From Sphingobacteriales bacterium (lineage in GTDB: Bacteria > Bacteroidota > Bacteroidia > Chitinophagales > CAIOSU01): a stretch of DNA of 64,000 bases. The notes beneath the pieces were generated by a model that worked only from the letters and a program-made list of their open reading frames with translations, was not told the origin of the DNA and searched no databases. The stretch is taken from NCBI GenBank assembly GCA_027486795.1, contig JAIXOI010000057.1, positions 26,896-90,895 on the forward strand. Direction: 5' to 3'. Positions 9,429 through 54,218 of the stretch are shown in pieces. The translations under genes were made by a program, and so were the position numbers. Each line of letters opens with the position of its first letter. The stretch's first letter is position 1.

Positions 9429-9454
9429 GGTTCCGAGTTGCGGGTTACATTTTA

Positions 9455-9520
9455 GCCCCTTTAGGGGCGTAAAGTTGGTAACTATTGAAACAACAAATAG
9501 TCCATAATCCCTTTAGGGAT
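9455..9520. repeat. Two REP-like hairpins upstream of the RAYT gene (GCCCC-TTTA-GGGGC and ATCCC-TTTA-GGGAT)
   Basis: Hairpins at 9455-9468 and 9507-9520 share a CCC-TTTA-GGG core. Confidence 0.7.
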
Positions 9521-9565
9521 GATACATACACAACACTTATAAGTGCACTTAAACCAAAATTGCAC

Positions 9566-10027
9566 ATGGCAAATACCTACACTCAAATCCATTTGCAGAT
9601 TGTCTTCGCGGTTAAATACCGAGGTGCTATAATTGACAAGACCTGGAAAGAAAATTTGTACCGTTATATAACTAGAATTGTTCAGGCCAATAACCATAAG
9701 CTTTTGGCTATAAATGGAATGCCTGACCATATTCATTTATTTGTAGGAATGCGACCAACTCAATCCGTTTCTGATCTATTGCAAGATATAAAAGGTAGCT
9801 CCTCAAAATGGATTAACGATAACAAACTGGTAAAAGGTAAGTTTGAATGGCAAGAGGGCTATGGAGCTTTTTCTTACGCAATATCACAAATTGATGATGT
9901 CATTAAGTACATAAACAACCAAGAAGAGCATCATAAAAACAGGTCTTTTCGGGAGGAGTATTTAGCATTTCTGCAGAAATTCAAGGTAGATTATAATGAG
10001 CTGTATATTTTTAAGGATTTGGTTTGA
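9566..10027 (+). CDS. REP-associated tyrosine transposase-like protein (IS200/IS605 Y1_Tnp family)
   Basis: MANTYTQIHLQIVFAVKYR..., HUH motif (PDHIHLFVGM), and a C-terminal Tyr region (WQEGYGAFSY...YINNQEEHH). The start was moved to the ATG at 9566 because the upstream part of the tracked ORF covers the hairpins. Confidence 0.8.
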   Translation: MANTYTQIHLQIVFAVKYRGAIIDKTWKENLYRYITRIVQANNHKLLAINGMPDHIHLFVGMRPTQSVSDLLQDIKGSSSKWINDNKLVKGKFEWQEGYGAFSYAISQIDDVIKYINNQEEHHKNRSFREEYLAFLQKFKVDYNELYIFKDLV

Positions 10028-10077
10028 TTTTAATGCATATCACATCCAGTTATGGTTATGCCCGCAATAAGTGTGTG

Positions 10078-10142
10078 CCGCCCCTACAGGGCGGTGTGTT
10101 ATGGTCATTGACTTTTCTACCAACATTTCGTCCCTGTGGGAC
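10078..10142. repeat. Two REP-like hairpins downstream of the RAYT gene (CCGCCC-CTACA-GGGCGG and GTCCC-TGT-GGGAC)
   Basis: Hairpins at 10078-10094 and 10130-10142, of the same CCC-loop-GGG type as the upstream pair. Confidence 0.7.
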
Positions 10143-10157
10143 TTTTGCATGTTATTT

Positions 10158-10235
10158 CCAACTCGGAATTCGCAACCAGTAACCCGCAACTACATTTTTT
10201 CGAACTCGCAACCCGTAACTCGCAACTCGTAACTA
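10158..10235 (+). repeat. Heptamer-periodic array, G[CT]AACNC family (two blocks of 5 units)
   Basis: CCAACTC GGAATTC GCAACCA GTAACCC GCAACTA (10158-10192), then CGAACTC GCAACCC GTAACTC GCAACTC GTAACTA (10201-10235), ending 10 nt before the prfA ATG. Confidence 0.85.
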
Positions 10236-10241
10236 TCTTTG
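10234..10241 (+). promoter_or_regulatory. Candidate -7 promoter box TATCTTTG, 4 nt before the prfA ATG
   Basis: Exact TAnnTTTG. The same TATCTTTGCCC string is found upstream of rpsL. No -33 TTTG at canonical spacing. Confidence 0.4.
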
Positions 10242-10245
10242 CCCC

Positions 10246-11319
10246 ATGCTAGAGAAACTAGAACAATTAAAGAACAAGTGGGAAGACCTAGAGCAGCGCC
10301 TTTCAGATCCGTCGGTATTGTCTGACCAGAAGCGCTTTAAGCAGGTGAGCAAAGAGTATAAAGACTTAGGTGTAATAGTAGCTGCGTATAGAAAGTACAA
10401 AAACGTAATGGACAATATCCGGAGCAATAAAGAACTACTGCGTACCGAAAAAGATGAAGAGTTTAGGGAAATGGCAAAGCTCGACCTTGCCGAGTTGGAA
10501 ACACAGCAAGAGGAAATGGAGGCAGATATCCGTATGCTTTTGGTGCCGAAAGACCCAGAAGATGAGCGCGATGTGATGGTGGAGATACGCGCCGGAACAG
10601 GTGGCGACGAGGCCGGCATTTTTGCCGCCGATCTTTTTCGCATGTACACCCGCTTTTTCGATTTGCAGGGATGGAAGTATGAAGTGTTGAACGAAAGCCC
10701 AGGAACCTTAGGTGGCTACAAAGAGGTAGTAATGGAAGTAATCGGCGATGAGGTGTATAGCGTTATGAAGTATGAAAGCGGGGTGCACCGTGTGCAGCGT
10801 GTGCCCGCTACTGAGTCGCAAGGCCGCATACACACCTCGGCTGCATCGGTGGCTGTAATGCCAGAGGCTGATGAAGTAGATGTGCACCTCGACCCTAAAG
10901 ACATTAAAGTAGATACTTTCCGCAGTAGCGGTGCAGGTGGCCAGCACGTAAACAAAGTGGAATCGGCAGTGCGGATGACACACATGCCTACCGGTATAGT
11001 AGTGGAGTGCCAAGCAGAGCGCAGCCAGATAAAGAACCGCGAATCGGCAATGAAGAGTCTGCGTACCAAGTTATATGAAGTTGAGTTGGAAAAGCGCAAT
11101 GCCGAAGTGGCAGCAAAGCGCAAAACCCTCGTTTCAACTGGCGACCGTAGTGCCAAAATACGCACCTACAACTACCCGCAGGGGCGCATTACCGACCACC
11201 GAATCGGCTTTACGAGCTACAATTTACCCGATTTTATGGGAGGTAACATCAACGAAATGATACAAGCGCTGCAATTGGCCGAAAATATGGAGAAACTCAA
11301 GGCTGGCGGACTAGCTTAA
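10246..11319 (+). CDS. prfA: Peptide chain release factor 1
   Basis: GGQHVNK motif, an RF1-type PxT tripeptide (RVPATESQGRIHTS), and a length of 357 aa. Confidence 0.95.
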   Translation: MLEKLEQLKNKWEDLEQRLSDPSVLSDQKRFKQVSKEYKDLGVIVAAYRKYKNVMDNIRSNKELLRTEKDEEFREMAKLDLAELETQQEEMEADIRMLLVPKDPEDERDVMVEIRAGTGGDEAGIFAADLFRMYTRFFDLQGWKYEVLNESPGTLGGYKEVVMEVIGDEVYSVMKYESGVHRVQRVPATESQGRIHTSAASVAVMPEADEVDVHLDPKDIKVDTFRSSGAGGQHVNKVESAVRMTHMPTGIVVECQAERSQIKNRESAMKSLRTKLYEVELEKRNAEVAAKRKTLVSTGDRSAKIRTYNYPQGRITDHRIGFTSYNLPDFMGGNINEMIQALQLAENMEKLKAGGLA

Positions 11320-11439
11320 TTTTACCATTGTTACCAATTGAACCTTTCCTTTCATTGCAACCTTATAGAGGTTAACGCGTTCTTATTGAGTATCGTGTTC
11401 TGATTCAGAATCCTTAACTTTATCCTTCCAAAATAGCTT

Positions 11440-12897
11440 ATGATTATCACTCGCATTGTTGTATTTACGCTCTTGGTAGGCTTCATGGCCATACCAGCGC
11501 AAGCCTTAGAAGTGCAAGTGCGCCATTGCCGTTTTTATGCGCCAGAGATAGGCCCGTATGTAGAGACTGATTTACTAGTGCTAGGCAACAGCATTAAATA
11601 TGTGCCTGTTGCCAATGGGCTTTATAGAGGCGCAGTTGAGGTTACGCTCATATATAAGCAAAATGGAGAAGTAAAGGCATTTGATAAATACGTGCTAAAT
11701 ACCGTTGATATTGCCGATACCTTAAACGTAAATGTGGGGTTGGTTGATAAGCAGCGCTTCGTATTGCCTAATGGCACCTATGCACTTGAAGCTACTTTTA
11801 AAGACATTAATTCAGGCAAGATCGAAACCCATCAGGAAGACTTAGTTATTGACTATGATTATAAGCAAATAAAATTTAGCGACATTAGTTTGGTTGATGA
11901 GTATAAGGCTAGCGATGAAAGTAGCGTTTATACAAAGAGCGGATTGTACATGTCGCCATATGTGGTTAACTTTTATCATAACGATGTAAACAAGCTTTCT
12001 TTTTACGTAGAACTTTATAATCCTGGCGTTTTGCCTACTGATGAAGGTTTGCTGGTAACATATGCCATTTATAAGCAAGGTAGGTTTGAGCACGAGGATA
12101 AAATGCTCTCTGTTAAAAAAGTAAAAGCCCAAGAGGTTATCCCAATATTCGCAGAGTTCGACATCAGCAATCTTGTATCGGGCAATTATGAGTTGATGGT
12201 TGAGGTTCGAAACCGCAATAATGAAGTGGTTACCTCTCGAACCGCTTTTTTTCAAAGGATGAAGTTTTTTGAGCCCGTTGCGCTCGACTCTATTGGCACA
12301 CTCAGTATTGAGGGAACCTTTGTGGAGCTTTTTACCAAAGAGGAAATAGAGTATCAACTTCTTTCAATGATGCCGGTTGCCACCATAGGCGAAGTAGCAA
12401 CTATTAAGAGTGTTATAAAAAATGGCGATTTTGAAATCATGAAGCGCATTTTCTTTAATTTTTGGCTGGCTCGCAACGATGTAGACCCACTAAGTGCTTG
12501 GACAGTGCATGCCGATTTAATTAAACAAGTGAACTATAGTTTTGGTACCAATAGCCTATATGGCTTTAACACCGATAGAGGAAGGGTATACTTGCAATAT
12601 GGTGCACCCAACCAAAGGCAAGTGGCCGATAGAGAGCCTGGCAGTTATCCTTACGAAATTTGGCAGTATTATGAGAAAGTAGGTGGCAGGCAGAGTAACT
12701 TAAAGTTTGTTTTCTATAACACTGATTTGGTTACCAACCATTACACTCTTTTGCACTCTAATGCTGTTGGTGAAATTCGTAACGAACAGTGGCAGCAAAT
12801 GCTACAATCTAGCTTTACTGGAGGTAATACGCCTATAAATGAAGATAATAGCCAGAACCATTATGGTGGCCGCTCCAAAGAGCGCTTTGATGAATGA
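11440..12897 (+). CDS. GWxTD domain-containing protein
   Basis: Signal peptide. The C-terminal region, YGFNTDRGRVYLQYGAPNQ...YPYEIWQY, matches the GWxTD domain pattern. Confidence 0.65.
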   Translation: MIITRIVVFTLLVGFMAIPAQALEVQVRHCRFYAPEIGPYVETDLLVLGNSIKYVPVANGLYRGAVEVTLIYKQNGEVKAFDKYVLNTVDIADTLNVNVGLVDKQRFVLPNGTYALEATFKDINSGKIETHQEDLVIDYDYKQIKFSDISLVDEYKASDESSVYTKSGLYMSPYVVNFYHNDVNKLSFYVELYNPGVLPTDEGLLVTYAIYKQGRFEHEDKMLSVKKVKAQEVIPIFAEFDISNLVSGNYELMVEVRNRNNEVVTSRTAFFQRMKFFEPVALDSIGTLSIEGTFVELFTKEEIEYQLLSMMPVATIGEVATIKSVIKNGDFEIMKRIFFNFWLARNDVDPLSAWTVHADLIKQVNYSFGTNSLYGFNTDRGRVYLQYGAPNQRQVADREPGSYPYEIWQYYEKVGGRQSNLKFVFYNTDLVTNHYTLLHSNAVGEIRNEQWQQMLQSSFTGGNTPINEDNSQNHYGGRSKERFDE

Positions 12898-12906
12898 TAC
12901 GCACCT

Positions 12907-13779
12907 ATGGATCGATTGTCTTACTGGCTTGTAATAGGTTTTCTTTACCCGCTATCGAAGTTACCATTCGCAGCGTTGTATTTTCTTTCCGATTTTGCCT
13001 ATTACATAATGTACTACCTAGTGCGCTATCGTCGCAAGGTGGTAACCCAAAATCTGTCCAGAGCATTTCCCGAAAAAACAGAACAAGAGATAACGGCTAT
13101 CGCAAAAAAGTTTTACAGTAGCTTTTGTGATATCATTATCGAGAATGTTAAATTTCTTACAGTCAGTGCCAACGAACTAGAGCAGCGTTTCCAGATAACG
13201 AACCATGAGGTGGTGGATGAGTTATACCAGCAACGCCGCAGTGCTATTACTACCTTGGGCCACATGGGCAATTGGGAAATGGCCGGCCTCAATGCCAGCC
13301 ATACCGTGGGGCATCATTCGTTGGCCATATACAAGCCACTTAAAAACAAACACTTTGATGCGCTGGCTCGTAAAATGCGCGCACGATTTGGTATGGAACT
13401 AGTGGCCCAGAACCGCATGCGCCATTTGCTAACTACCTTGGATAAAGAAGCCTGCCTATTCCATTTTATAACCGACCAGACCCCAGGTGGCAAAGCCCCA
13501 AGCCATTGGATGACCTTCATGAACCAAGAGGCACCTATATACCTTGGTACCGAACGGGTGGCTAAAATGACCAACTTACCCGTTTTCTATTGCCACATTC
13601 TTCGTCAAAAACGCGGCTATTATACGTTAGAGTTAAAAGTAGTAACCGATAACCCTAGCACTTGCGCCCCCAATGAGATTACCGAAAGGCACACCCAATT
13701 GCTGGAAGCCAACATCCGTGAGCAGCCCGAAAGCTGGCTTTGGAGCCATAAAAGGTGGAAGCATAGGAAGCCCAATTAG
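12907..13779 (+). CDS. Lysophospholipid / lipid A biosynthesis acyltransferase (LpxL/HtrB family)
   Basis: N-terminal membrane helix, an HX4(D/E) acyltransferase motif (GHMGNWEM), and about 290 aa, as in the LpxL/LpxM family. Confidence 0.7.
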   Translation: MDRLSYWLVIGFLYPLSKLPFAALYFLSDFAYYIMYYLVRYRRKVVTQNLSRAFPEKTEQEITAIAKKFYSSFCDIIIENVKFLTVSANELEQRFQITNHEVVDELYQQRRSAITTLGHMGNWEMAGLNASHTVGHHSLAIYKPLKNKHFDALARKMRARFGMELVAQNRMRHLLTTLDKEACLFHFITDQTPGGKAPSHWMTFMNQEAPIYLGTERVAKMTNLPVFYCHILRQKRGYYTLELKVVTDNPSTCAPNEITERHTQLLEANIREQPESWLWSHKRWKHRKPN

Positions 13780-13810
13780 GAAATTTGGTAATGTGCTAAT
13801 TTGGAAATTA
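13779..13810. repeat. Octamer-periodic array GGAAATTT GGTAATGT GCTAATTT GGAAATTA
   Basis: Period 8, starting on the last base of the acyltransferase stop codon. AATTTGGAAAT (13798-13808) is the exact inverted partner of 13840-13850. Confidence 0.8.
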
Positions 13811-13841
13811 TCTATTTTATTTGAGTAATGGTTAAACCCAT

Positions 13842-13873
13842 TTCCAAATTTTCAAATTGACTCATTTTCAAAT
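13842..13873. repeat. Octamer-periodic array TTCCAAAT TTTCAAAT TGACTCAT TTTCAAAT (inverted partner of 13779-13810)
   Basis: Period 8. It overlaps the last about 8 codons and the stop codon of the transporter gene at 13852. TTCCAAATTTTCAAATTGA (13842-13860) recurs exactly at 43645-43663. Confidence 0.8.
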
Positions 13874-14892
13874 TGATTGCGACTCGCCAACCGTTGCGCA
13901 ATAATACTAGCTACCAGCAACTGCAAGGCGTGGTAAATCATAATCGGTAGAAGTATAATACCTGTCATACTGCTATCCGCAAAAAGCACTTTACTCATTA
14001 CGGTGCCTTGTACCAGGCTTTTTTTGCTGCCGCAAAACTGCGCGGTAATGGTATCCTCTCTATTAAATTTTAATAGTTTACTCACCAAATGCACTATACC
14101 ATACACGGTAACAAAGAGCCCTAACATGCCCAAGCCAAGCAGTAATAAAGCAGTAGCGCTAAAGCCTACAAATAGGTCCATGGTAAATGAGTGGCAGAAG
14201 GAGGTGTAAATAATAAGGAGGATGATAATTTGATCGAAGTAGCGCAATTTCATGCAATGCTTAGCCGTAAAACCTCCGAAGCGCCTATGTAATAATATAC
14301 CGAGCACAACAGGCACTATAACCTGTACGGTGAGCTTTAGTATCACGTCGCCTATCACATAATCGTCGCTTGTGGCTGCTATTACCAGCCCCATCCATAG
14401 AGGTGTTAAAAACACTCCTATAAGGCTACTGATGCTGGCATTGAATATGGCAGCGGGTATATTGCCCCCTGCAATAGATACCATTACTACCGAGGATGAT
14501 ACGGTAGAGGGTAATGAAGCTAAGAAAAATACCCCCAACCACAAGGTGTTGTTATCGGCATCCGGAAAAAGGAACCGAGTACTATATATAATAGCGGGAA
14601 ACAGAATAAACGTGGTGGTGTGAATGGTAGCGTGCAAACGCCAGTTTTTGAGGCCAGCTTTCATTTTCTCGGGGCTAAGCTTCAAGCCATAGAAGAAGAA
14701 AATAAGCGATACACCATAGGTAGTAAACTTACCCAGCGATACAGGCCCATCATAATTGCCAGGGCCGGGCAAAAGATAAGCCAGTCCAATCATGCCAAGC
14801 AGGGCTAGAATGAACCAGTCAAGACCCGCTTTGGCAGCGGTTGCACGTAGGGTGGCAAACGATAGGATAGAGGGGGCTGGTTTGGTCGTCAT
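13852..14892 (-). CDS. Bile acid:sodium symporter (BASS/SBF-like, YfeH-type) family transporter
   Basis: 346 aa polytopic membrane protein with an SBF-like pattern (GLKLSPEKMKAGLKNWRLH, LPSTVSSSVVM). Confidence 0.75.
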   Translation of the reverse strand: MTTKPAPSILSFATLRATAAKAGLDWFILALLGMIGLAYLLPGPGNYDGPVSLGKFTTYGVSLIFFFYGLKLSPEKMKAGLKNWRLHATIHTTTFILFPAIIYSTRFLFPDADNNTLWLGVFFLASLPSTVSSSVVMVSIAGGNIPAAIFNASISSLIGVFLTPLWMGLVIAATSDDYVIGDVILKLTVQVIVPVVLGILLHRRFGGFTAKHCMKLRYFDQIIILLIIYTSFCHSFTMDLFVGFSATALLLLGLGMLGLFVTVYGIVHLVSKLLKFNREDTITAQFCGSKKSLVQGTVMSKVLFADSSMTGIILLPIMIYHALQLLVASIIAQRLASRNQFENESI

Positions 14893-15152
14893 TTCGGGTG
14901 CTAAGTAGGCAAAGTTTTTTCAGAAATTGCGAAAAATGCCGTTGTTAAATGAGGCCAATACTATGTGGGTTTGTGGATAAACGTAGATTCTGGAAATTTT
15001 TTTCATTTTTTTTGATAGGGCAAAATGCTATGTATAAAGTAAAAAAGATTTCAAAAAACATTGATAATCAGTACAAATATGGCAATTTATTCAAAGAGCG
15101 AGAGGTTGCTTGCGGTGTTGTGCATTTATCTTCAACAAAAATGAAAAAATGA

Positions 15153-15184
15153 TTTGTAAATGAAGAATGGGTTAGCTATCTTTG
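15153..15184 (+). promoter_or_regulatory. Candidate Bacteroidota promoter of the rpsL operon (-33 TTTG at 15153-15156, -7 TATCTTTG at 15177-15184)
   Basis: Both consensus elements are present with a 20-nt spacer, 27 nt upstream of the rpsL ATG. Confidence 0.5.
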
Positions 15185-15211
15185 CCCTTCCAAAAATAGA
15201 ACGAGTAAAGT

Positions 15212-15625: not shown

Positions 15626-15654
15626 TTAAGAAACAGGATTAGTATCAATATAGC

Positions 15655-16122: not shown

Positions 16123-16144
16123 TTTTTAGCAGAGGGATATAACA

Positions 16145-18298: not shown

Positions 18299-18306
18299 TA
18301 TCTGCC

Positions 18307-18612: not shown

Positions 18613-18617
18613 GCGCG

Positions 18618-38397: not shown

Positions 38398-38697
38398 TTA
38401 CTCTTCAACAATTACGAAAACCTCTTCGTTTTCTTTTTTCATTAAGTACTCTTCCCGTGCAAATTTCTCCAGTTTCTCGGAATTGCTAAACAAGCCTTTT
38501 GCTTCTGCTTCTACCTCTACGGCCTTTACTTGGTAGTATGCTTTTTCCCTTTCAAGGTCGGTAAGCTCTTGCTTGAGCTTAAATTGGGTAACGAGGTTGT
38601 GCCTATCGAAAAACACCAGCCATACCAAGAAAACCAAGGAGGTAAGCACATACTTGTTTCGCAAAAAGGATGGTATGGTGATGTTAGGTATTTGCAT
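38398..38697 (-). CDS. Septum formation initiator (FtsB/DivIC-like) protein
   Basis: 99 aa from MQIPNITIPS: one TM segment (LTSLVFLVWLVFF), then a coiled coil (LKQELTDLEREKAYYQ). The tracked 201-aa ORF was trimmed because its 5' part overlaps eno and the intergenic repeats. Confidence 0.55.
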   Translation of the reverse strand: MQIPNITIPSFLRNKYVLTSLVFLVWLVFFDRHNLVTQFKLKQELTDLEREKAYYQVKAVEVEAEAKGLFSNSEKLEKFAREEYLMKKENEEVFVIVEE

Positions 38698-38720
38698 TGG
38701 TGTAAAGGTAGAAAATATTG

Positions 38721-38752
38721 AGACACAAGACACAAGACATAAGACACAAGAT
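38721..38752. repeat. Heptamer array AGACACA AGACACA AGACATA AGACACA AGAT
   Basis: Period 7. 38721-38738 is the exact reverse complement of 38831-38848 (18 nt). Confidence 0.9.
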
Positions 38753-38785
38753 TTGTTGCGTTGTAGCAAAATTTGTTCAAAGCAA

Positions 38786-38828
38786 CCTAAAACAAAAGAA
38801 TGCCCGAAAACTTGTTTTCGGGCATTCT
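38786..38828 (-). terminator. Rho-independent terminator of eno (15-bp perfect stem)
   Basis: AGAATGCCCGAAAAC / GTTTTCGGGCATTCT (38797-38811 / 38814-38828). On the minus strand it is followed by TTTGTTTTAGG. Confidence 0.8.
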
Positions 38829-38831
38829 TAG

Positions 38832-38863
38832 TCTTGTGTCTTGTGTCTGAAATCTTGTGTCTA

Positions 38864-38866
<3 letters not shown>
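38832..38866. repeat. Heptamer array TCTTGTG TCTTGTG TCTGAAA TCTTGTG TCTATCA (inverted partner of 38721-38752)
   Basis: Period 7. The last unit contains the eno stop codon (38864-38866). Confidence 0.9.
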
Positions 38867-40248
<1,382 letters not shown>

Positions 40249-40250
40249 AA

Positions 40251-43485: not shown

Positions 43486-43560
43486 ACTTTATTTTTTGTC
43501 TGAACCTTTATTAAAAATGGATATTAGCTCAACTCAAAACAGGCTCCTCACCCTTTTTCA

Positions 43561-43579
43561 GGGGGAGGGTGGGAGGGGG
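43561..43579 (+). other. G-quadruplex-type motif GGGGGAGGGTGGGAGGGGG
   Basis: Four G-runs of 3 or more Gs separated by single-nucleotide loops, in the gap between the PNP stop and the porin start. Confidence 0.6.
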
Positions 43580-43644
43580 TTGTTGATACGACCATTGCAT
43601 TTGATTTGGCCTACATACCCAGTTCGAAACTAAATCTCAATAAC

Positions 43645-43663
43645 TTCCAAATTTTCAAATTGA
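43645..43663. repeat. Copy of an octamer-family element, TTCCAAATTTTCAAATTGA
   Basis: 19-nt exact match to 13842-13860, lying directly 3' of the minus-strand PNP stop codon (43666-43668). Confidence 0.85.
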
Positions 43664-43665
43664 AT

Positions 43666-45673: not shown

Positions 45674-45679
45674 TTTATC

Positions 45680-45895: not shown

Positions 45896-46083
45896 AGATG
45901 GATTAATTGGTTAGAATTATCTTTTAAAGCTATTTTTTTTGCTTAATTTTTAATGATTGCAAAGGCTTAAGATATCCATCTGCAAATTTTCTGGATACTT
46001 GATACGCAATACTAGGTACTAAAAAAACAAATTCCTTATCTTCATAGCATTCAATCCAAATTATCCAAAAATTCTCCTCAACA

Positions 46084-47655
46084 ATGGATACGTCCACTCT
46101 TGCCCGTGTTACGGTTACCAACCCCATTAATCTTAAAGAACTTTATTCGTTTGAAGAGCCAACCACGGCCGAGCTCGATCAAGTGTTTGCCCGTGCTCGT
46201 GCCATGGAGCCTGTGCTGCGTAAAATGAGCGTAAAGGAAAGAGTGGGTCACATGAATAATGTGAGGCAGTATATTATCGACAATCGCGAATGGATACTTG
46301 ACCGTATTATAGAAGAAACAGGCAAGAGCCGCATGGATGCCCTTACTGCTGAGGTGTTTGAGGTAACCGATGTGTTTGATTACTTTGAGAAAGTAACCGA
46401 GAAGCTGCTAAAAGATAAGAGTGTTTATACCCCGCTGCCGTTGTTGGGCAAAAAATCGAAAATATATTGGGAGCCTTTAGGTACAGTATTGATTATCGCT
46501 CCTTGGAATTTTCCATTCTACCAGGGCATTGTGCCAGCCATGTTGGCCTTTTTGGCAGGCAACCCAGTGTTGTTTAAGCCTAGCGAAGTGACCCCGATGA
46601 AGGGCGTGATGGAGAAAGTGTTGGAAGGGGCTGGTTTTCCTAAAGATGCCATACAAGTAGTGTACGGTGCTAAAAACACTGGCGCACAATTGATTGAGCG
46701 CCGCCCCGCTAAAATACACTTTACCGGCAGCGTGAATACGGGCAAGAAGATTATGGCCCTGGCCGCACAACAACTGATACCCGTTGATTTGGAGCTTGGA
46801 GGTAAAGACCCTAGCTTGGTATTTGAAGACGTAGACCTAGAGCGCACTGTGAACGGCATTATGTGGGGCGCTTTTACCAATGCAGGCCAAAGCTGCACTA
46901 GTATCGAGCGTTTGTATATACACGAGAGCATCTATCAGCCGCTCCTGGATATGCTGGTTGAAAAAACCAAGAAGCTTACCGTAAGCCATGCGGGTCGCGA
47001 TTACAAATCGCCAGCCGATGTAGATATGGGCACCGTTACAGCCGAGTTTCAAATAAGAATTATTGAAGACCATATAAAAGACGCTGTGGAGCGTGGCGGC
47101 AAGGTATTGTGCGGTGGTAGCCGCCAGCCAGGGACGCACCATTTTCCGCCAACCATTGTGGCCGACGTAGACCATAGCTTTAAAATAGCCAGTGTGGAAA
47201 CCTTCGGCCCGGTGATAGCGGTAATGAAATTCAAAACCGAAGAAGAGGCCATCCGTTTGGCAAACGACTCGCCATATGGCTTAAGTGCCAGTGTGTGGAG
47301 CAAAGACTTAAAACGCGCCGAGCGTGTAGCCCGAGAGATTATTACCGGCAACGTGAGCATCAATAGCCACATGCTTACCGAGGGCAACCCAGCGTTACCA
47401 TTTGGTGGTATAAAGGATAGCGGCTTTGGTCGCTACAAAGGCGAAGCAGGCATCTACACATTCTGCAACAGCAAATCGGTATTGATTGACGTACAAGGCA
47501 AAAAGATAGAGCCACATTGGTACCCGTTTACCCCTGAGAAATATGCGTTGTTAACCGATTTGATGGTTGCGTTGTTTAGTAAATCGAAGAATTGGGTAAA
47601 ATTTGCCGTTTCAGGATTGAAAATCGACAACATCGGTACGAAACAGAAATTGTAA
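46084..47655 (+). CDS. Aldehyde dehydrogenase family protein
   Basis: PWNFPF, FTGSVNTGKKI, ELGGKDP and GQSCTSIER (catalytic Glu and Cys). 523 aa, with about 60 extra C-terminal residues. Confidence 0.85.
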   Translation: MDTSTLARVTVTNPINLKELYSFEEPTTAELDQVFARARAMEPVLRKMSVKERVGHMNNVRQYIIDNREWILDRIIEETGKSRMDALTAEVFEVTDVFDYFEKVTEKLLKDKSVYTPLPLLGKKSKIYWEPLGTVLIIAPWNFPFYQGIVPAMLAFLAGNPVLFKPSEVTPMKGVMEKVLEGAGFPKDAIQVVYGAKNTGAQLIERRPAKIHFTGSVNTGKKIMALAAQQLIPVDLELGGKDPSLVFEDVDLERTVNGIMWGAFTNAGQSCTSIERLYIHESIYQPLLDMLVEKTKKLTVSHAGRDYKSPADVDMGTVTAEFQIRIIEDHIKDAVERGGKVLCGGSRQPGTHHFPPTIVADVDHSFKIASVETFGPVIAVMKFKTEEEAIRLANDSPYGLSASVWSKDLKRAERVAREIITGNVSINSHMLTEGNPALPFGGIKDSGFGRYKGEAGIYTFCNSKSVLIDVQGKKIEPHWYPFTPEKYALLTDLMVALFSKSKNWVKFAVSGLKIDNIGTKQKL

Positions 47656-47656
47656 C

Positions 47657-47688
47657 TTGGAAATTTGAGCATTTGCTAATTTGGAAAT
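47657..47688. repeat. Octamer array TTGGAAAT TTGAGCAT TTGCTAAT TTGGAAAT
   Basis: Period 8, beginning 2 nt after the ALDH stop codon. Same family as 13779-13810. Confidence 0.85.
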
Positions 47689-47762
47689 GAGGTTTTGTGT
47701 GTAGTGGAGAGATAAATTAGCCTGTTACTTCTATTTTCAAGTTTTTGAAATTGCTACATCCT

Positions 47763-47815
47763 CAAATTGAATTTCCATTTTCACATTTTCAAATTAGCAC
47801 ATTTTCAAATTAGTT
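47763..47815. repeat. Octamer array (CAAATTGA) ATTTCCAT TTTCACAT TTTCAAAT TAGCACAT TTTCAAAT TAGTT, running into the ATG
   Basis: Period 8, an imperfect inverted partner of 47657-47688. CAAATTAGCACATT (47790-47803) is the exact reverse complement of 13790-13803. Confidence 0.85.
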
Positions 47816-49207: not shown

Positions 49208-49598
49208 TTATCTAAGCAACTCGGCCCTGAAAGCCATTAATCGCATTGGCGATATGATGATACCTCGCAACGGTGAGTTCCCTTCCTTCAGCGAAGTGGG
49301 CGGCATAGCCTATATCGATGACTTGGTATCGTATGCCCCACCAGCGGACATAAAAGACCTAAATCTCTTGCTTACTATACTGGCCTTCATGCCCAACTTT
49401 GTTTTGAGGTGGCTATTAAACAGGATGGAAAACTCCATGGAAAGCAGTGGCCCATTGGCACCTATTTTCCGTATGTTGGATGTTGGCTTACGCGGCCTTA
49501 TTTTCTCATGCTACTACACCGAAAAAATACCCGCCAGCTACACAGGCAAAAAGCCGTTGGATATTATCGGGTTTGATTTGACCAGGGTGGAGGATTAA
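49197..49598 (+). CDS. Hypothetical protein, overlapping the GMC oxidoreductase gene by 11 nt
   Basis: 133-aa ORF overlapping the GMC gene end by 11 nt. No motif recognised. Confidence 0.45.
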   Translation: MASNYLSNSALKAINRIGDMMIPRNGEFPSFSEVGGIAYIDDLVSYAPPADIKDLNLLLTILAFMPNFVLRWLLNRMENSMESSGPLAPIFRMLDVGLRGLIFSCYYTEKIPASYTGKKPLDIIGFDLTRVED

Positions 49599-49669
49599 GG
49601 GGTATGCGTTGCGTACTTCGGCTCCGCTCAGTATGACATAATGGGGGTTTATTGATATTGCTGTAGTAT

Positions 49670-51037
49670 CTAAAACAACCGCTCATACAACTCCTGCACC
49701 TTATTTACGGCTATCACTTCAATATTATACTTCCTTAGGTCGAGGCCTTTTACGCTGGCGCCACTTACAAATATTTTCTTGAAGCCTAGCTTGTCGGCTT
49801 CGCTAATGCGCTGATCGATGCGGTTTACGGCACGTATTTCGCCAGATAGGCCTACCTCGCCACTAAAGCAATAAGTGGGCGGCACCACTTGGTCTTCGAA
49901 AGAAGATAGTAAGGCGCAAACCACTGCCAAATCAATGGCTGGGTCTTCTACGCGCAGGCCACCCGCTATATTCAAAAACACGTCTTTGGTTCCAAATTGA
50001 AACCCAGAGCGTTTCTCTAGTACTGCCAATAGCATCTGCAATCGGCGCAAGTCAAACCCTGTGGCGCTGCGCTGGGGGCTACCATATACGGCGTGGGTTA
50101 CCAATGCTTGGGTCTCAATGAGCATGGGGCGCATGCCTTCAATAGTGCCAGCAATGGTTACACCGCTAAGCACTTCTTCGTGCTGGTTGAGGAGGAATTC
50201 GCTAGGGTTGCTTACTTCGCGCAGGCCACCATTGCCCATTTCGTATATGCCCAGTTCGCTGGTGCTACCAAAGCGGTTTTTGCTGGTGCGCAGTATGCGG
50301 TAGTTGTAATTGCGGTCGCCTTCAAATTGCAATACCGTATCTACTATGTGCTCCAATACCTTTGGGCCAGCTATGCTGCCTTCTTTGGTGATGTGTCCAA
50401 TGAGCATTACGGGTGTGGCGGTTTCTTTGGCGTAGCGTTGCATTTCGCTGGCGCACTCCCGTATTTGCGATACACTGCCGGGTGTAGACTCAATATACTG
50501 CGACTGCAAGGTTTGTATCGAATCAATAATCACCAAACCTGGCTTCAATTCCTTTAGGTGGCGGAAGATTTTGTATGTAGCCGTTTCGGTAAGAATGTAG
50601 CAGTTTTCTGCTTTCAATCCCAACCGCCTAGCGCGCATAGATATTTGCTCAGCACTTTCCTCGCCGCTTACGTACACCACTTTTAGTTTCGGCACACTCA
50701 GCGCCAACTGCAGCATCAGTGTTGATTTGCCGATGCCCGGGTCGCCGGCAATAAGCACCAGTGAGCCTGGCACAATGCCACCGCCCAATACGCGGTTCAG
50801 CTCTTGGTCGGGCATACTGATGCGGTAGGTCTGTTGCTCTTCAATATCCTCCAACAATTGCGGAACGGCCTCTGCCGAGCCAATGTCCTTTTTAAGCTGT
50901 GCCTTTGGTGTATCATCCTTCTCTAAAACTTCTTCTACAAAGGTGTTCCATTGCCCGCACGACGAGCAGCGGCCAATCCACTTGGGCGATTGTGCGCCAC
51001 AATTCTGGCAGCTATAGATGGTGCGTATTTTCGACAT
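49670..51037 (-). CDS. radA: DNA repair protein RadA/Sms
   Basis: Zinc finger CQNCGAQSPKWIGRCSSCGQWNT, Walker A GDPGIGKST, KNRFG motif and a Lon-like C-terminal domain. Confidence 0.93.
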   Translation of the reverse strand: MSKIRTIYSCQNCGAQSPKWIGRCSSCGQWNTFVEEVLEKDDTPKAQLKKDIGSAEAVPQLLEDIEEQQTYRISMPDQELNRVLGGGIVPGSLVLIAGDPGIGKSTLMLQLALSVPKLKVVYVSGEESAEQISMRARRLGLKAENCYILTETATYKIFRHLKELKPGLVIIDSIQTLQSQYIESTPGSVSQIRECASEMQRYAKETATPVMLIGHITKEGSIAGPKVLEHIVDTVLQFEGDRNYNYRILRTSKNRFGSTSELGIYEMGNGGLREVSNPSEFLLNQHEEVLSGVTIAGTIEGMRPMLIETQALVTHAVYGSPQRSATGFDLRRLQMLLAVLEKRSGFQFGTKDVFLNIAGGLRVEDPAIDLAVVCALLSSFEDQVVPPTYCFSGEVGLSGEIRAVNRIDQRISEADKLGFKKIFVSGASVKGLDLRKYNIEVIAVNKVQELYERLF

Positions 51038-51049
51038 GAAACAAATATA

Positions 51050-51084
51050 GTATCAAGTAGTGAGTATCAAGTATCAAGTACTAG
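51050..51084. repeat. Heptamer array GTATCAA GTAGTGA GTATCAA GTATCAA GTACTAG
   Basis: Period 7, starting 13 nt upstream of the radA start codon (51037, minus strand). Confidence 0.85.
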
Positions 51085-51102
51085 ACATGATGAAGATATT
51101 GC

Positions 51103-51270
51103 TTAAGCTTCTGCGTTGAGGCGGGTTCTCCAGTTTACGGTGCGTAGCTTATCGGTAATACGTTGCTTGGTGGCCTCTAAAAACAGAAAGCGCTCAATGT
51201 TCGCTATTTTATCGTTGGTAACTGCAGCAGGGGCTTGTGCTCTTTTACTGCGTTTGCGGTGCTTTATCAT
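51103..51270 (-). CDS. Possible small basic protein (55 aa, below the ORF-track cut-off)
   Basis: Hand translation of the minus strand gives MIKHRKRSKRAQAPAAVTNDKIANIERFLFLEATKQRITDKLRTVNWRTRLNAEA*. It has the same orientation as radA. It competes with a less protein-like 61-aa plus-strand ORF (51116-51301). Confidence 0.25.
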   Translation of the reverse strand: MIKHRKRSKRAQAPAAVTNDKIANIERFLFLEATKQRITDKLRTVNWRTRLNAEA

Positions 51271-51371
51271 AACCTTAGTAATTTTATTAGCACTAAGATA
51301 GTATTTTGCAAATTAAAATAGCAAATAAAAACTAAAAATAATTGCAATAAAATTTAGCTAAGGTTGGTAAA

Positions 51372-52385
51372 TTATTTCAAAAACCTTGTGCCATCAAGGT
51401 TTAGCCACTGCAGTGCGGCACCGCTTAGTAAAGTTAGTTTAGTATCATTGGGGTAAGGCATGGAGTGGATTAAATGCCCTGGCTGCAGCTCACCCAGCGG
51501 AAAAGGATAGTCGGTGCCTAAGCATACTTTATCGGCACCAATCAGGTTAACGATATAGTCGAGCATAGCAGGGTCGTGCACGAGGCTATCCAGCCAAAAC
51601 TTGCCTAAGTATTCTCGCGGGTTTATGGGATTATCAACGGCTACCAAATCGGGTCTAACGTTGAAGCCGTGCTCAATGCGGCCAATAGTTGCTGGGAACG
51701 AACCACCGCCATGCGCAAATGCCACCCGTAGGTTTGGCAAGCGCTCAAATATGCCCCCAAATATCATAGAGCAAATGGCCAGCGAGGTTTCGGCAGGCAT
51801 ACCCACGAGCCACGGCAACCAATATTTATCCATTTTACCTTTGCCCATCATATCCCAAGGGTGCACAAATATGGCGGCGCCTAAGCGGTTGGCAGCTTCA
51901 AAAAAGGGGAATAGCTCTGGGTCGTTCAGGTTCCAATCGTTAACATGCGAACCGATTTGCACGCCTGCCAAACCCAATTCGCCCATGCAGCGCTCCAGTT
52001 CTTGTATTGCTAATTGTGGGTCTTGCAACGGCACGGTGCCCAATGCAACATATCGGGTAGGGTAGCGGCGCGCCACATCGGCAATATGGTCGTTCAAGAA
52101 ACGGGATACTTCTAGCGCATCCTTGCCTTTTGCCCAATAATTGAATAGCACGGGTATGGTGCTGAGTACCTGCACGTGCACCCCTTGGTGGTCGCATTCG
52201 TGCATGCGCACCTCGGGGTCCCAGCAGTTACTTTCCACCTCCCTGAAAAACTTATCATCTACCATCATCCGCGCACAGCATGCCTTGTGATGGTCAAGGC
52301 TCACAAAGCCCCCATAGCCGAATTTATTAGCCCAATTGGGCATTTTTTCGGGCATAATGTGGGTGTGGATGTCGATGGTAAGCAT
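51372..52385 (-). CDS. 2-amino-3-carboxymuconate-6-semialdehyde decarboxylase (ACMSD, amidohydrolase_2 family)
   Basis: From MLTIDIHTHIMPEKMPNWANKFGYGGFVSLDHH through WLPWLVGMPAETSLAICSMIFGG, FAHGGGSFP and GTDYPFPLGE, it is collinear with animal ACMSD as I recall it. The start was trimmed to 52385. Confidence 0.82.
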   Translation of the reverse strand: MLTIDIHTHIMPEKMPNWANKFGYGGFVSLDHHKACCARMMVDDKFFREVESNCWDPEVRMHECDHQGVHVQVLSTIPVLFNYWAKGKDALEVSRFLNDHIADVARRYPTRYVALGTVPLQDPQLAIQELERCMGELGLAGVQIGSHVNDWNLNDPELFPFFEAANRLGAAIFVHPWDMMGKGKMDKYWLPWLVGMPAETSLAICSMIFGGIFERLPNLRVAFAHGGGSFPATIGRIEHGFNVRPDLVAVDNPINPREYLGKFWLDSLVHDPAMLDYIVNLIGADKVCLGTDYPFPLGELQPGHLIHSMPYPNDTKLTLLSGAALQWLNLDGTRFLK

Positions 52386-52425
52386 GGGCAAGTTGTTTAC
52401 ATAATGCTTTGCTAAGATAGCAAAC

Positions 52426-53031
52426 TCAACCTGAGCAAGCAGCATAAACCACCAGCCTGATACCAAAACCTATCATTACCACCCCGATGATGCGGTAAGC
52501 TACTGTTAAGTTTTGGGGCTGGATAAAGGCTTTGATGCGGTGCGCTAAAAGCACTTTGAGGCTATCGAGGGTGAAAATGCCCAGTAGGCAGCCAAGCAAG
52601 TATTGGTACATGCCACCACTATAGCCATATTTGTGGCCTGCATAACCTATTACGGTGAGCCATACTCCAAACACAAACGGGTTAACGAAGTTGACCAAAA
52701 AGCCGCTCACAAATGCGCCCGTTAAGCCACCAGCGCTGGGCTTAGCCTCGGTGTTGTACGAGGGGCTTACGATATACCTGCCGCCAATAGCAAACAGAAT
52801 GGTAGCTCCCACAATGCTCACGTAGGTTGTGTTCTCTACCTTTTGCAAAAAGGCTACCGTGCCCGCAACGCATAGTGCCACTGCAACTATATCGCTAACT
52901 ATAATGCCCAAGGCTACCATAAGGCCAGCGGTGCGGCCCTTTTGTAGGGTGTTTTGCAGTAATGTGAAAAACACCGGCCCCACAAAAACAATCATGGCCA
53001 AACCCCATAAATAGCCTTCTAAAAACGCCAT
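52426..53031 (-). CDS. LysE/RhtB-family amino acid exporter
   Basis: 201 aa with 5-6 TM segments and an N-terminus LWGLAMIVFVGPVFFTLLQNTLQKGR typical of the LysE family. Confidence 0.7.
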   Translation of the reverse strand: MAFLEGYLWGLAMIVFVGPVFFTLLQNTLQKGRTAGLMVALGIIVSDIVAVALCVAGTVAFLQKVENTTYVSIVGATILFAIGGRYIVSPSYNTEAKPSAGGLTGAFVSGFLVNFVNPFVFGVWLTVIGYAGHKYGYSGGMYQYLLGCLLGIFTLDSLKVLLAHRIKAFIQPQNLTVAYRIIGVVMIGFGIRLVVYAACSG

Positions 53032-53050
53032 GGGTGCAAAATAGAAATAT

Positions 53051-54112
53051 TCAATGAGTTATGGTAAATATGGCGGTAGCGGGGCGTTGAGTAGCCATGC
53101 CCGCTATTGTTTCTTTGTTGATTAGTTTTTGGGCATTGGGCTGTGCAAACACTTCCTGCATATTGCGTATGGCTCCTGCTGGCACTTGGGCTTCAAGTAA
53201 CGCAGCTAGAAGCTCGTCTCGTTGCCAAGTGGAGGCTGCTAGCTGTAGCTGGTTCAATAAACTTTCGCGGTTGGTTACCCGTTTGCTATTGGTACTATAC
53301 TTTTCATCGGTAGGCAAAATAGATAGCTTGAGCACGTTGCACAGGTTCTCGAATTGCGCATGGTTGCCCACCGCTAACACAATCTGCCCGCAATCGGCAC
53401 AAGTAAGGGTTTCGCCATAAGGGGCAATGTTGGGGTGCAAGCTGCCAAGGCGCTGCGGTATATGCCCAGCCATAAGCCAGTTGGTGGCTTGGTTGGCTAA
53501 AGATGCTATGGCCGCATCGTATAACGATACGGACACCATGGCTCCCAACCCCGTGCGCTCGCGTTGCAGCAGTGCCAGCAATATGCCTTCTTTTAGTTGA
53601 TGCGCCGCCATCAAATCAATCACTGCCACGGGCCATTTTATGGGTCCGCTTTCGGGTGTGCCGTTCATGTACATTAGCCCAGCTTCGGCTTGCAGCACTA
53701 CATCAAATGCTGTGCGGCTATCGTTTGGTCCAAAGCCAGTGATGTTGGCATATATGAGTTTCGGGTTGAGGGCTTTTAATGTTTCATAATCCAGTCCCAG
53801 TTTAACATCATCGGTGGCCTTAAAGTTAGTGAGCACTATATCGGCATTGGCTATTAGGTCTAGCACCGCTTTTTTGCCTGCTGTGGTTTTCAGGTCGATG
53901 GATTGGTACTCTTTACCATAATTAACCGAACTAAAATAGGCCGAAACCTCGCTTTGGGCATCTTCGGTGGGTAGTTTCCACTGGCGGGTTACGTCGCCGC
54001 CATCGGGGTTTTCAATCTTGATAACCTTGGCACCCAATTCAGCTAAAAACATACCCACGGCTGGCCCCGCCAATACGCTTGCTAGTTCTATTACGGTTAG
54101 GTGCTTGAGCAT
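53051..54112 (-). CDS. Family III CoA-transferase (CaiB/BaiF family)
   Basis: LTVIELASVLAGPAVGMFLAELGAKVIKIENPDGGDVTRQW, ITGFG...; 353 aa. Confidence 0.85.
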   Translation of the reverse strand: MLKHLTVIELASVLAGPAVGMFLAELGAKVIKIENPDGGDVTRQWKLPTEDAQSEVSAYFSSVNYGKEYQSIDLKTTAGKKAVLDLIANADIVLTNFKATDDVKLGLDYETLKALNPKLIYANITGFGPNDSRTAFDVVLQAEAGLMYMNGTPESGPIKWPVAVIDLMAAHQLKEGILLALLQRERTGLGAMVSVSLYDAAIASLANQATNWLMAGHIPQRLGSLHPNIAPYGETLTCADCGQIVLAVGNHAQFENLCNVLKLSILPTDEKYSTNSKRVTNRESLLNQLQLAASTWQRDELLAALLEAQVPAGAIRNMQEVFAQPNAQKLINKETIAGMATQRPATAIFTITH

Positions 54113-54125
54113 GGAGGGGTTTACA

Positions 54126-54146
54126 GGTTGAGGGTTACGAGTTGCG
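54126..54146. repeat. Heptamer array GGTTGAG GGTTACG AGTTGCG (inverted G[CT]AACNC family)
   Basis: GTTACGAGTTGCG (54134-54146) is the exact reverse complement of 10221-10233. The array lies 14 nt upstream of the CoA-transferase ATG and is followed by TTTTCAAATTT (54149-54159), an octamer-family word. Confidence 0.8.
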
Positions 54147-54218
54147 TGTTTTCAAATTTAAAGATTCATAACGAATACTAGTCACTATTCACTAACAACT
54201 ACTTACTTTGTAACAATC

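Follow-up and report, generated by a model that had tools for sequence, protein, structure and literature searches.

Heptanucleotide repeats are the most abundant class of long simple sequence repeats (SSRs) in many bacteria, and polymerase slippage has been proposed for them (Mrazek 2007, as summarized in PMC4679880 and PMC4692102). Among described heptamers, TAACTGA repeats lie just 5' of start codons in Beggiatoaceae, Cyanobacteria and five Bacteroidetes, and the gaps of these Bacteroidetes also hold other heptamer repeats, with contigs ending inside repeats (MacGregor 2015, PMC4679880). The GGGAATC repeats of Xanthomonas form inverted pairs and vary among related species (Rehm 2015, PMC4692102), and heptameric repeats are said in PMC4692102 to have no detailed literature. 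Here we analyzed 64,000 nt of contig JAIXOI010000057.1 of a Sphingobacteriales bacterium (the whole stretch is called the window below), in which many intergenic gaps hold short tandem arrays of 7- or 8-nt units, often as inverted pairs beside stop and start codons. A preliminary description of these arrays could not place them in any described family. This was too strong, since intergenic heptamer repeats have already been described as a class (PMC4679880, PMC4692102), but its view that no single consensus fits them was upheld, and the likeness that it saw to cyanobacterial heptamers was apt. No description of multi-family, strand-polar, paired heptamer modules in Bacteroidota was found in a search that most subscription journals lay outside.

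As far as the available summaries of the long SSR heptamers go, the arrays share with them tandem intergenic 7-nt units, many different words, a preference for 7 over 6 or 9 nt, unit-number changes between relatives and a patchy distribution among lineages. They show the tandem excess, the confinement to non-coding DNA (46 period-7 arrays intergenic versus 5 coding in the sample defined below) and the unit-number variation (one unit more in relative L168; 3 versus 5 units in orthologous arms) of that class, but by the same summaries are unlike it in being short and degenerate (3–9 units), in having a dispersed module form with inverted pairs, and in their fixed orientation. With the short tandemly repeated repetitive (STRR) sequences they share an intergenic position and several heptamer families per genome, but their host belongs to the Bacteroidota and not to the heterocystous cyanobacteria, and the words differ: none of the heptamers that we take to be those of STRR sequences (CCCCAGT, TTGGTCA and CAACAGT) forms arrays in the window. 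The TAACTGA repeats resemble them in forming forward arrays a few nt 5' of starts (29 of our arrays stand no more than 12 nt from a start codon versus 16.1 expected under uniform placement in the gap) and in the weak or absent use of Shine-Dalgarno (SD) sequences. Unlike these repeats, the arrays have many words rather than one, the window holds no TAACTGA array (there is one chance-level match, inside a gene), and inverted pairing, a stop-proximal partner and polarity are not described for TAACTGA (PMC4679880). The GGGAATC and GGGGA(T/C)T repeats of Xanthomonas and Nostoc are likewise intergenic, with some inverted pairs on opposite strands, and vary in length and sequence in the orthologous gaps of related species (PMC4692102); they are G-rich and quadruplex-capable, whereas the arrays here form several families without G-tracts.

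Repetitive extragenic palindromic (REP) elements, bacterial interspersed mosaic elements (BIMEs) and REP doublets forming hairpins (REPINs) are also short, dispersed intergenic repeats with inverted hairpin doublets, often at gene 3' ends. Their unit is an imperfect palindrome of 20–40 nt, whereas the arms here are direct tandem arrays, the unpaired ones folding at z +0.6 to +1.2 relative to shuffles. In addition, the gene for a REP-associated tyrosine transposase (RAYT) in the window is flanked by true GTAG-tagged REPs, which are a separate sequence beside the arrays. With foldback elements and miniature inverted-repeat transposable elements (e.g., Correia and RUP) the arrays have in common terminal inverted arms around a short non-coding element, cargo between the arms, variable size and solo arms; the arms of eukaryotic foldback elements are themselves built of short tandem subrepeats. 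Unlike in those elements, the arms here adjoin codons rather than arbitrary intergenic sites; no transposase and no target-site duplication at the pair boundaries was seen.

Domain searches identified in the window prfA, a lipid-A acyltransferase, an SBF-like transporter, ftsB/DivIC, eno, carA, a porin, PNP, an aldehyde dehydrogenase (Aldh), a GMC oxidoreductase, radA and a CoA-transferase, so that the earlier gene identifications from prfA through the CoA-transferase were all correct; GldM and Porin_10 genes are also present. No Rfam family matched at the gathering threshold anywhere in the 64 kb, despite a long ribosomal-protein gene cluster. The closest relatives of the window's enolase (81% and 78% identity) belong to uncultured Chitinophagaceae/Chitinophagales genomes and, with the GldM and Porin_10 genes, assign the window to the order Chitinophagales of the Bacteroidota. 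For comparison, we fetched 1.3 Mb of enolase neighborhoods from 80 Bacteroidota species, which together with the window make 81 sequences with 854 gaps and 165 kb of intergenic DNA (12% of the sequence). Homologue searches also yielded close relatives with nucleotide identities to the window of ~91% (L167 and L174) and 82–91% (L168), more distant ones at 72–83% (L170, L171 and L172), and L177, represented by a prfA protein alone that is 86% identical to that of the window.

Tandem Repeats Finder confirmed the arrays where they had been reported, with 4.4–8.6 copies: 10203–10234 (7 nt, 4.6 copies), 13774–13809 (8 nt, 4.5), 13840–13874 (8 nt, 4.4), 38721–38751 (AGACACA, 4.4), 38831–38848, 40151–40213 (TGGTTAT, 8.6), 40222–40243, 47772–47811 (8 nt, 5.1) and 51049–51080 (4.6), with a perfect 16-nt duplication at 47782–47813. 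The nested inverted pairing was borne out as well. The four longest inverted repeats in the 64 kb are array pairs already noted, the perfect inverted stretches measure 18 nt (38721/38831), 14 nt (40150/40229), 13 nt (9436/10179), 11 nt (13798/13840) and 10 nt (47674/47790), and the hairpin stems of both the carA–eno and the eno–ftsB gap were recovered. At the lipid-A acyltransferase, Aldh and eno genes the arms begin −6 to +2 nt relative to the stop, and at eno, GMC, prfA, radA and the CoA-transferase gene they finish 2–13 nt from the start, in agreement with the distances first claimed. Two arrays, 54174–54205 and 45991–46005, had been overlooked. The arrays, and two elements enclosed by them, are as follows.

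9427–9449, + strand: AACTCGY after-stop arm (GAGGTTCCGAGTTGCGGGTTAC), overlapping the stop codon of gene 8574–9428 and forming a 13-nt perfect inverted repeat with 10179–10191; the orthologous arm has 5 units in L174 and L177.
9566–10027, + strand: RAYT (Y1_Tnp) gene (PF01797, E=1e-29), context rather than an array member, between the AACTCGY arms.
10158–10235, + strand: AACTCGY before-start arrays in two blocks (10158–10193 and 10203–10235), with the TATCTTTG −7 box (10234–10241) and then the prfA ATG (10246) on their 3' side.
13773–13808, + strand: 16-mer (8+8) after-stop arm, overlapping the lipid-A acyltransferase stop; 83% identical to 47654–47688 and nearly identical in L174.
13840–13875, − strand: 16-mer after-stop arm of the convergent SBF-like gene; 86% identical to 47775–47811.
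38718–38751, − strand: CAAG+NNN before-start arm (TCTTGTGTCT..., gene strand), ending 20 nt before the ftsB/DivIC ATG, with a TACCTTTA box between arm and ATG; the array is also in L170 and L171.
38796–38829, − strand: intrinsic-terminator-like site of eno, the best of its region, a perfect 16-bp hairpin followed by TTTTGTTTT; enclosed by the AGACACA arms.
38832–38862, − strand: CAAG+NNN (AGACACA) after-stop arm, 1 nt 3' of the eno stop codon.
40150–40213, − strand: TGGTTAT before-start array (AACCAAT, gene strand), ending 2–3 nt short of the eno ATG.
40215–40248, − strand: TGGTTAT after-stop arm, beginning 2 nt past the carA stop (gap 40249–40250).
43642–43665, − strand: short 16-mer after-stop copy adjoining the PNP stop codon; longer in L167 and L168.
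45991–46005, + strand: GTATCAA-family copy in before-start orientation, 78 nt 5' of the aldehyde dehydrogenase gene.
47657–47689, + strand: 16-mer after-stop arm, 1 nt past the aldehyde dehydrogenase stop codon.
47732–47813, + strand: 16-mer before-start arms, including the 16-nt duplication and ending 2 nt before the GMC oxidoreductase ATG.
51049–51083, − strand: GTATCAA element (TAGTATCAAGTAGTGAGTATCAAGTATCAAG, + strand) in before-start orientation, 5' of the TATATTTG −7 box and the radA ATG.
54113–54146, − strand: AACNNNN array that probably makes up the CoA-transferase 5' leader, with the −7 box TAAATTTG upstream at 54160–54153.
54174–54205, + strand: NNCACTA heptamer array 5' of the gene starting at 54219; 0 of 300 shuffles matched the observed score.

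A strict scan of the window (4 units at ≥80% match) recovered period 7 alone, with every match intergenic. Intergenic autocorrelation reached z=3.7 at lag 7, z=5.4 at lag 14 and z=1.7 at lag 8, and 8 of the 33 gaps that measure 30 nt or more showed significant 7/8-nt periodicity (one of the eight being a T-run), while identical criteria gave no periodic gap in a 50-kb E. coli control. Across the 854 gaps, 43 period-7 arrays were observed against 0.15 expected from dinucleotide shuffles, and 11 period-8 arrays against 0, whereas periods 5, 6 and 9–12 were at or near the chance level. On the crude open reading frame (ORF) map that gave the coding and intergenic counts for period 7, 13 period-8 arrays were intergenic and 5 coding, and periods 6 and 9–14 yielded at most 5 arrays each. 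Thus, the observation is real and far above chance, and the architecture is found outside the window in other Bacteroidota genomes. Its distribution is patchy: 52 of the 81 sequences have no array (30.7 expected), and six, from several orders, have at least five (about one expected). About a third of the strict arrays have several 9-mers in common with a reverse-complement partner no more than 300 nt away, and many arrays of the set are unpaired.

The words had first been taken as locus-specific and unrelated, an impression that was due to the small window: the CAAG+NNN (GTATCAA/AGACACA), TGGTTAT, AACTCGY and 16-mer (AATTTGRAAATGNGCT) families recur in the relatives, at differing gaps. The words are genus-wide families that move between gaps, with a REP-like pattern of dispersal. 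Of the five families proposed in the preliminary description, the shared architecture and the words themselves stood, but the 8-nt family truly has a 16-nt unit, and AGACACA and GTATCAA turn out to be one superfamily, CAAG+NNN, as follows from a hybrid array, CAAGACA-CAAGTAT-CAAGACA, in L179. The GTATCAA module has a defined form of ~30 nt, TAGTATCAAG-(TA/AT)GTGA-GTATCAAGTATCAAG, with one irregular unit. This form was found 5' of radA in the window, 3' of eno in L171, 3' of eno and 5' of ftsB in L167, and 3' of Aldh, 5' of GMC, 3' of eno and 5' of ftsB in L168. Two 16-mer loci of the window are 83–86% alike in both arms and have unrelated spacers; the family shows almost no change in the gap between the convergent lipid-A acyltransferase and SBF genes of L174, and in L170 both its sequence and its site after the Aldh stop are kept at ~80% nucleotide identity. 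In another of the sampled loci (L020) a composite of array, GC hairpin and array is duplicated. Units combine constant cores of 3–4 nt with variable positions (CAAG+NNN, AAC+NNNN, AACC+NNN). Similar words were reused in 16% of cases within a genome versus 4.9% between genomes, and most words were single in the sample. No target-site duplications were found at pair boundaries, the relatives being too diverged (78–91% nucleotide identity) for clean empty sites.

Orientation followed a strict rule in the window and five relatives, checked against a curated gene map: all 38 of 38 intergenic copies, from five families, read X after stops and its reverse complement, RC(X), before starts. Whatever the arrangement of the flanking genes, a pair inverted as X...RC(X) obeys the rule; what calls for an explanation is that the G-rich, C-poor arm leads. 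This compositional polarity extends to the larger sample, where, on the sense strand of the adjacent gene, C exceeded G in 24 of 31 start-nearest arrays (19 genomes) and G exceeded C in 24 of 27 stop-nearest arrays (17 genomes; Fisher p=3e-7). The excess of arrays near stop codons was small (25 versus 19.1 expected).

Orthologous gaps showed both unit-number change and word replacement, the two outcomes that the preliminary description had proposed to look for. In the carA–eno gap, L168 has the TGGTTAT/AACCAAT hairpin of the window with one 7-nt unit more, L170 and L171 also have the TGGTTAT family, and L167 has an AGACA[CT]A array and an ACATCGT array instead. The arm after gene 8574–9428 has 3 units in the window and 5 in its orthologues. 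In two Spirosoma loci (L047 and L059; enolase 81% identical at the nucleotide level), the orthologous eno–ftsB gap carries inverted heptamer arrays with different words, and in the next-but-one gap all units of both arms read GAAAGAG[TC] in L047 and GAATGAG[TC] in L059. One gap of L059 holds a complete hairpin that is absent from the orthologous gap of L047, which is 21 nt long.

Several of the paired arrays form very stable stems: dG −34.4 (z −5.3) for carA–eno and dG −64.6 (z −11.2) for eno–ftsB in the window, the latter enclosing the perfect 16-bp terminator-like hairpin and its T-run, and z −5.6 to −10.9 for the array gaps of Spirosoma. The A/U-rich 16-mer pairs were no stabler than shuffles (z −1.1 to −1.4), and the unpaired arrays 5' of prfA, radA and the CoA-transferase gene were less structured than shuffles, that of the CoA-transferase marking the upper end (+1.2) of the range given above. 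In L167 the two arrays of the carA–eno gap are not complementary and no hairpin forms (z +1.6). Complementary arms can also lie ~750 nt apart in L167 and L168, across a gene and a terminator, and the RAYT gene too stands between arms. We folded 433 co-directional gaps on both strands, of which 19 were periodic and structured. There was no sense-strand bias among these 19 (antisense stabler in 13, sense in 6; Wilcoxon p=0.32), and G-U pairs made up 7.5% of pairs in the sense and 11.8% in the antisense direction, whereas 132 non-periodic structured gaps favored the sense strand by 79 to 52 (p=0.015). An RNA role like that of REP/BIME elements, as the preliminary description had envisaged, was therefore unsupported by the sole test at hand. 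The strand symmetry suggests a DNA-level origin of the pairs. Among four relatives, the carA–eno gap yielded a consensus RNA structure of only 12 weak pairs, with units that align in several registers.

The array stems do not have the form of intrinsic terminators, in which a U-run directly follows a G+C-rich stem, since no T-run follows them; the lone such site (38829–38796) is the separate, enclosed hairpin. The idea that periods of 7 and 8 nt are favored because they put a stop codon in every frame was rejected, since GTATCAA and GGTTATT arrays have no stop in any frame.

The RAYT gene does lie between AACTCGY arms, as had been noticed, but a functional link between RAYT and the arrays did not stand up to testing. 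Among 80 RAYT homologue loci (metagenomic), no more than 4 have an array within 400 nt. Most of the 22 loci inspected among the 80 fetched carry another repeat, often in several copies, namely a TCCC-N3-5-GGGA hairpin with a ATATnGGTAGAAA tail, and the window RAYT has its own REP hairpins of the form (G/A)(T/C)CCC-N3-4-GGG(A/G)(C/T) at 9455–9468, 9507–9520, 10080–10097 and 10116–10142, one of them with a TCTACCAACAT tail. These flanking hairpins match the GTAG-tagged REP class as outlined in PMC3733652. In L177 the RAYT gene is likewise inside the AACTCGY bracket. In L174 it is absent between the orthologous genes, where the stop codon is followed by a GGTTACGAG... array, 48 nt, AACTCG... arrays, TATCTTTG and the ATG. 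L174 thus keeps the array pair without RAYT, so the gene sits between arms whose presence is independent of it. The position of RAYT is polymorphic within the genus. L167 has another RAYT gene (Y1_Tnp) between porin and carA (8146–8637), accompanied by GC-hairpin repeats of its own, at a place where the window has none.

Other genes are also found between arms. A 202-aa PEMT-family gene stands between eno and ftsB in L167 (11399–12007), L168 (11396–12004) and L171 (11415–12023) and is lost in the window and L170; a remnant of ~10 nt of its 3' end and the TTTTGCTACA motif downstream of it remain at 38764–38790 of the window. An ORF spanning the eno–ftsB gap of the window (38398–39003) is spurious. 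Between Aldh and GMC, which are adjacent in the window, L168 has an ORF of 167 aa (780–1283), bracketed by inverted GTATCAA modules, for which there was no Pfam match.

Our combined findings lead us to a tentative reading, which we hold to be a little short of probable, in which the arrays are dispersed, foldback- or REPIN-like periodic modules that undergo slippage, have concerted arms, and are filtered for orientation by leaders that lack SD sequences and are poor in G. This reading draws on the periodic excess, family dispersal, orientation rule, unit gain, concerted arm change and RAYT independence observed above; the strand symmetry of folding, the weak folding of unpaired start-proximal arrays and the patchy occurrence among lineages also speak for it. 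A module would comprise ~25–40 nt with 3–9 degenerate units, which measure 7 nt except in one family with 8+8 nt, and the typical organizing unit would be the inverted pair X...RC(X) around a whole gap, a doublet like those of foldback and REPIN elements but with periodic, non-palindromic arms. Modules would be copied from gap to gap, arrays would lengthen and shorten one unit at a time by replication slippage, and the likeness of the arms may be upheld by a DNA-level process, e.g., template switching or gene conversion. Other DNA, such as RAYT, the PEMT-family gene and the 167-aa ORF, could lodge between the arms. Selection at the transcript level would then set which orientation survives beside a gene. 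Bacteroidota start translation without SD pairing and need unstructured leaders, and this need would put the G-poor arm beside the start and its C-poor complement beside the stop. The hairpin itself would be a by-product rather than the selected function, given the absence of sense bias, the hairpin-less L167 gap and the ~750-nt spacing of some arms.

Several points weigh against this interpretation. It offers no explanation of its own for the 7-nt preference and takes this over with the slippage proposal credited to Mrazek (2007). No transposase turned up, nor did a target-site duplication or a clean pair of filled and empty sites, and copying between loci could be ectopic conversion between existing arrays rather than transposition. 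The AGACACA family is an exception to the trend of G over C after stops, and the excess of arrays abutting start codons could mean a direct function at cistron boundaries. The strand-folding test has n=19 with some gaps mutually related, the gene maps of the 80 loci are crude ORF calls, and the scope is 64 kb of the source genome and ~20 kb per relative.

The simplest alternative is that the arrays are purely local SSRs, made by in-place slippage with a 7–8-nt preference and given their partners by template switching, without copying or function; purifying selection alone (no frameshifts, no G in leaders) would account for their intergenic placement and polarity. The one-unit gain between the window and L168, the orthologous arms of 3 and 5 units, the fast turnover of mostly single words and the absence of a sense-RNA stability bias all agree with it, as does the standing of heptamers as the commonest long SSRs, for which slippage has been proposed (Mrazek 2007, as summarized in PMC4679880 and PMC4692102). 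We nevertheless consider it unlikely, though deserving serious weight, since several genomes have a ~30-nt module with an identical irregular unit at loci that are not related, both 16-mer arms are common to two loci with unrelated spacers, the family vocabulary is kept across the genus at 78–91% nucleotide identity while positions shift, and periods 5, 6 and 9–12 stay near chance though they should be equally harmless in intergenic DNA. Alternatively, the stop- and start-proximal arms may pair in a polycistronic transcript as functional RNA hairpins at cistron boundaries, the stem hiding a leader without SD sequence as long as no terminating ribosome has opened the first arm, or protecting or terminating the upstream message as REP/BIME elements would. 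The position of the arms at stop and start codons, the very stable stems of the window and of Spirosoma, the retention of the stem in orthologous gaps while the sequence of both arms changes together, and the pair that encloses the eno terminator would fit this. It is improbable in view of the lack of the sense-strand advantage of ordinary structured gaps, the two non-complementary arrays of L167, the arms ~750 nt apart across a gene and terminator, the 16-mer pairs that are no stabler than shuffles, the many unpaired arrays, and the presence of the same architecture between convergent genes.

A different role would be that of tracks for proteins with an oligonucleotide/oligosaccharide-binding (OB) fold, cold-shock protein (Csp) or S1, which would line up on single-stranded RNA or DNA with a 7-nt footprint, keeping leaders open or regulating translation. 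This would account for a period that is sharply 7 and sometimes 8, for constant unit cores of 3–4 nt with variable positions, for polarity relative to the transcript strand and for arrays directly 5' of start codons, and the GTCTTGT units of the ftsB leader resemble what we take to be the published heptamer preferred by CspB. The words are too diverse for a single sequence-specific binder, though, A/C-rich words such as AACCAAT are atypical Csp ligands, and the stop-proximal arms would need a separate explanation. We thus regard such tracks as distinctly improbable, although CspB of B. subtilis binds one protein per heptamer and Csp or S1 has been proposed for TAACTGA (PMC4679880). With the same distinct improbability, the modules might be Bacteroidota-wide cistron-boundary signals read as single-stranded RNA, in which rows of OB-fold proteins (Csp or S1) with a 7-nt footprint would keep SD-less start leaders open while the stop-proximal complements would decide if a leader is exposed on a read-through transcript. 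Were the inverted arrays instead sites for phase-variable inversion of the enclosed segment (invertons), one would understand why arms flank segments of 30–110 nt with terminator- or promoter-like sequence, why six of six short-read contigs end exactly at an array, and why a 44-nt element of the PNP–porin gap is inverted relative to L167. We hold inversion to be very unlikely, however: contigs should break wherever an inverted repeat is about as long as a k-mer, the arrays do not bound the 44-nt element, no recombinase gene is adjacent and the words differ by locus. Least credible of all is the mobilization of the arrays as REP/REPIN elements by the window RAYT. The gene does lie between inverted AACTCGY arms with their 13-nt perfect inverted repeat, and the arrays are short, intergenic, dispersed and often inverted doublets, but the rarity of 7/8-nt arrays at RAYT homologue loci, the separate TCCC-loop-GGGA hairpins with GGTAG/CTACC tails around these homologues and the window gene, the array pair retained in L174 without RAYT and the non-palindromic nature of the individual modules leave it almost no probability.

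An analogy with integron attC sites, suggested by their 7-nt core and by cassettes that lie between inverted sites, was dropped: there is no integrase, and by eye the words are unlike GTTRRRY, which we take to be the attC core consensus. The 44-nt element mentioned above (43543–43586) is GC-rich and partly palindromic (CAACAACCCCCTCCC...CCCCTGAAAAAGGGTGAGGAGC), lies in the opposite orientation in both L167 and L168, and has a similar counterpart 5' of prfA in L179. This element is possibly a further mobile palindrome of small size. A DNA inversion from arm to arm in the PNP–porin gap was discarded, since just the 44-nt element is inverted and the flanks do not fit.

The modules that we read as dispersed and filtered by their leaders meet promoters in more than one arrangement. 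Exact −7 boxes (TAnnTTTG) end 5 nt before the ATG of prfA (TATCTTTG, 10234–10241, +) and radA (TATATTTG, 51049–51042, −), and a third, TAGCTTTG (3818–3825, +), ends at the same distance from the ATG of a gene starting at 3830. In Flavobacterium johnsoniae, transcription starts 4–5 nt after the −7 element (PMC6847099), so the mRNAs of prfA, radA and the gene at 3830 would be leaderless or nearly so, and the prfA and radA arrays would cover roughly −12 to −45 of promoters that are probably leaderless. For the CoA-transferase gene the −7 box is upstream and the array fills the leader. With boxes between array and ATG in the first two cases and upstream of the array in the third, there is no fixed placement of array and promoter, and exact −7 boxes were rare near arrays in the 80 loci. 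The 8-nt family was considered as tandem Bacteroidota −7 boxes and rejected, because TAATTTGG did not match TAnnTTTG in an exact scan. In F. johnsoniae, which has no SD sequences, low secondary structure and adenines on the upstream side tune initiation (PMC6847099). A G-poor array that can form neither G-C nor G-U pairs with itself would give an unstructured leader, and by this analogy the less-than-shuffle folding of unpaired start-proximal arrays fits the need for unstructured leaders seen in F. johnsoniae.

Arrays also reach into called genes. Positions 13852–13875, a repeat arm, encode the last 8 codons and the stop of the SBF-like transporter, whose Pfam domain ends at residue 336 of 346, before the repeat-encoded tail; the C-terminal tail of this protein seems to derive from the array. 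In L170 (10001–10048) the public call for the enolase (443 aa) has 16 surplus codons at its start, the G-poor AACCAAT leader being open in frame (MTNNQSTNNQLTNQPT-MSIII...).

For annotation and assembly, the arrays have practical consequences. They extend or truncate called ORFs and cause start miscalls, as in the SBF-like tail and the L170 enolase, and they break short-read (de Bruijn) assemblies at gene boundaries. All six Logan short-read metagenome contigs with this enolase (L001–L006), the sole other sightings of the source organism and 100% identical to the window, end at 38722, the first base of the AGACACA array.

With this locus and its relatives, the heptamer class acquires a concrete anatomy in a phylum from which there are hardly any descriptions of it: a defined module form, strict stop/start orientation, concerted paired arms and family replacement between related species. 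If the orientation rule reflects translation without SD sequences, the repeats would be a natural probe of Bacteroidota leaders, and if the OB-fold reading of cistron boundaries were true, it would supply a molecular cause for the 7-nt period of heptamer repeats.

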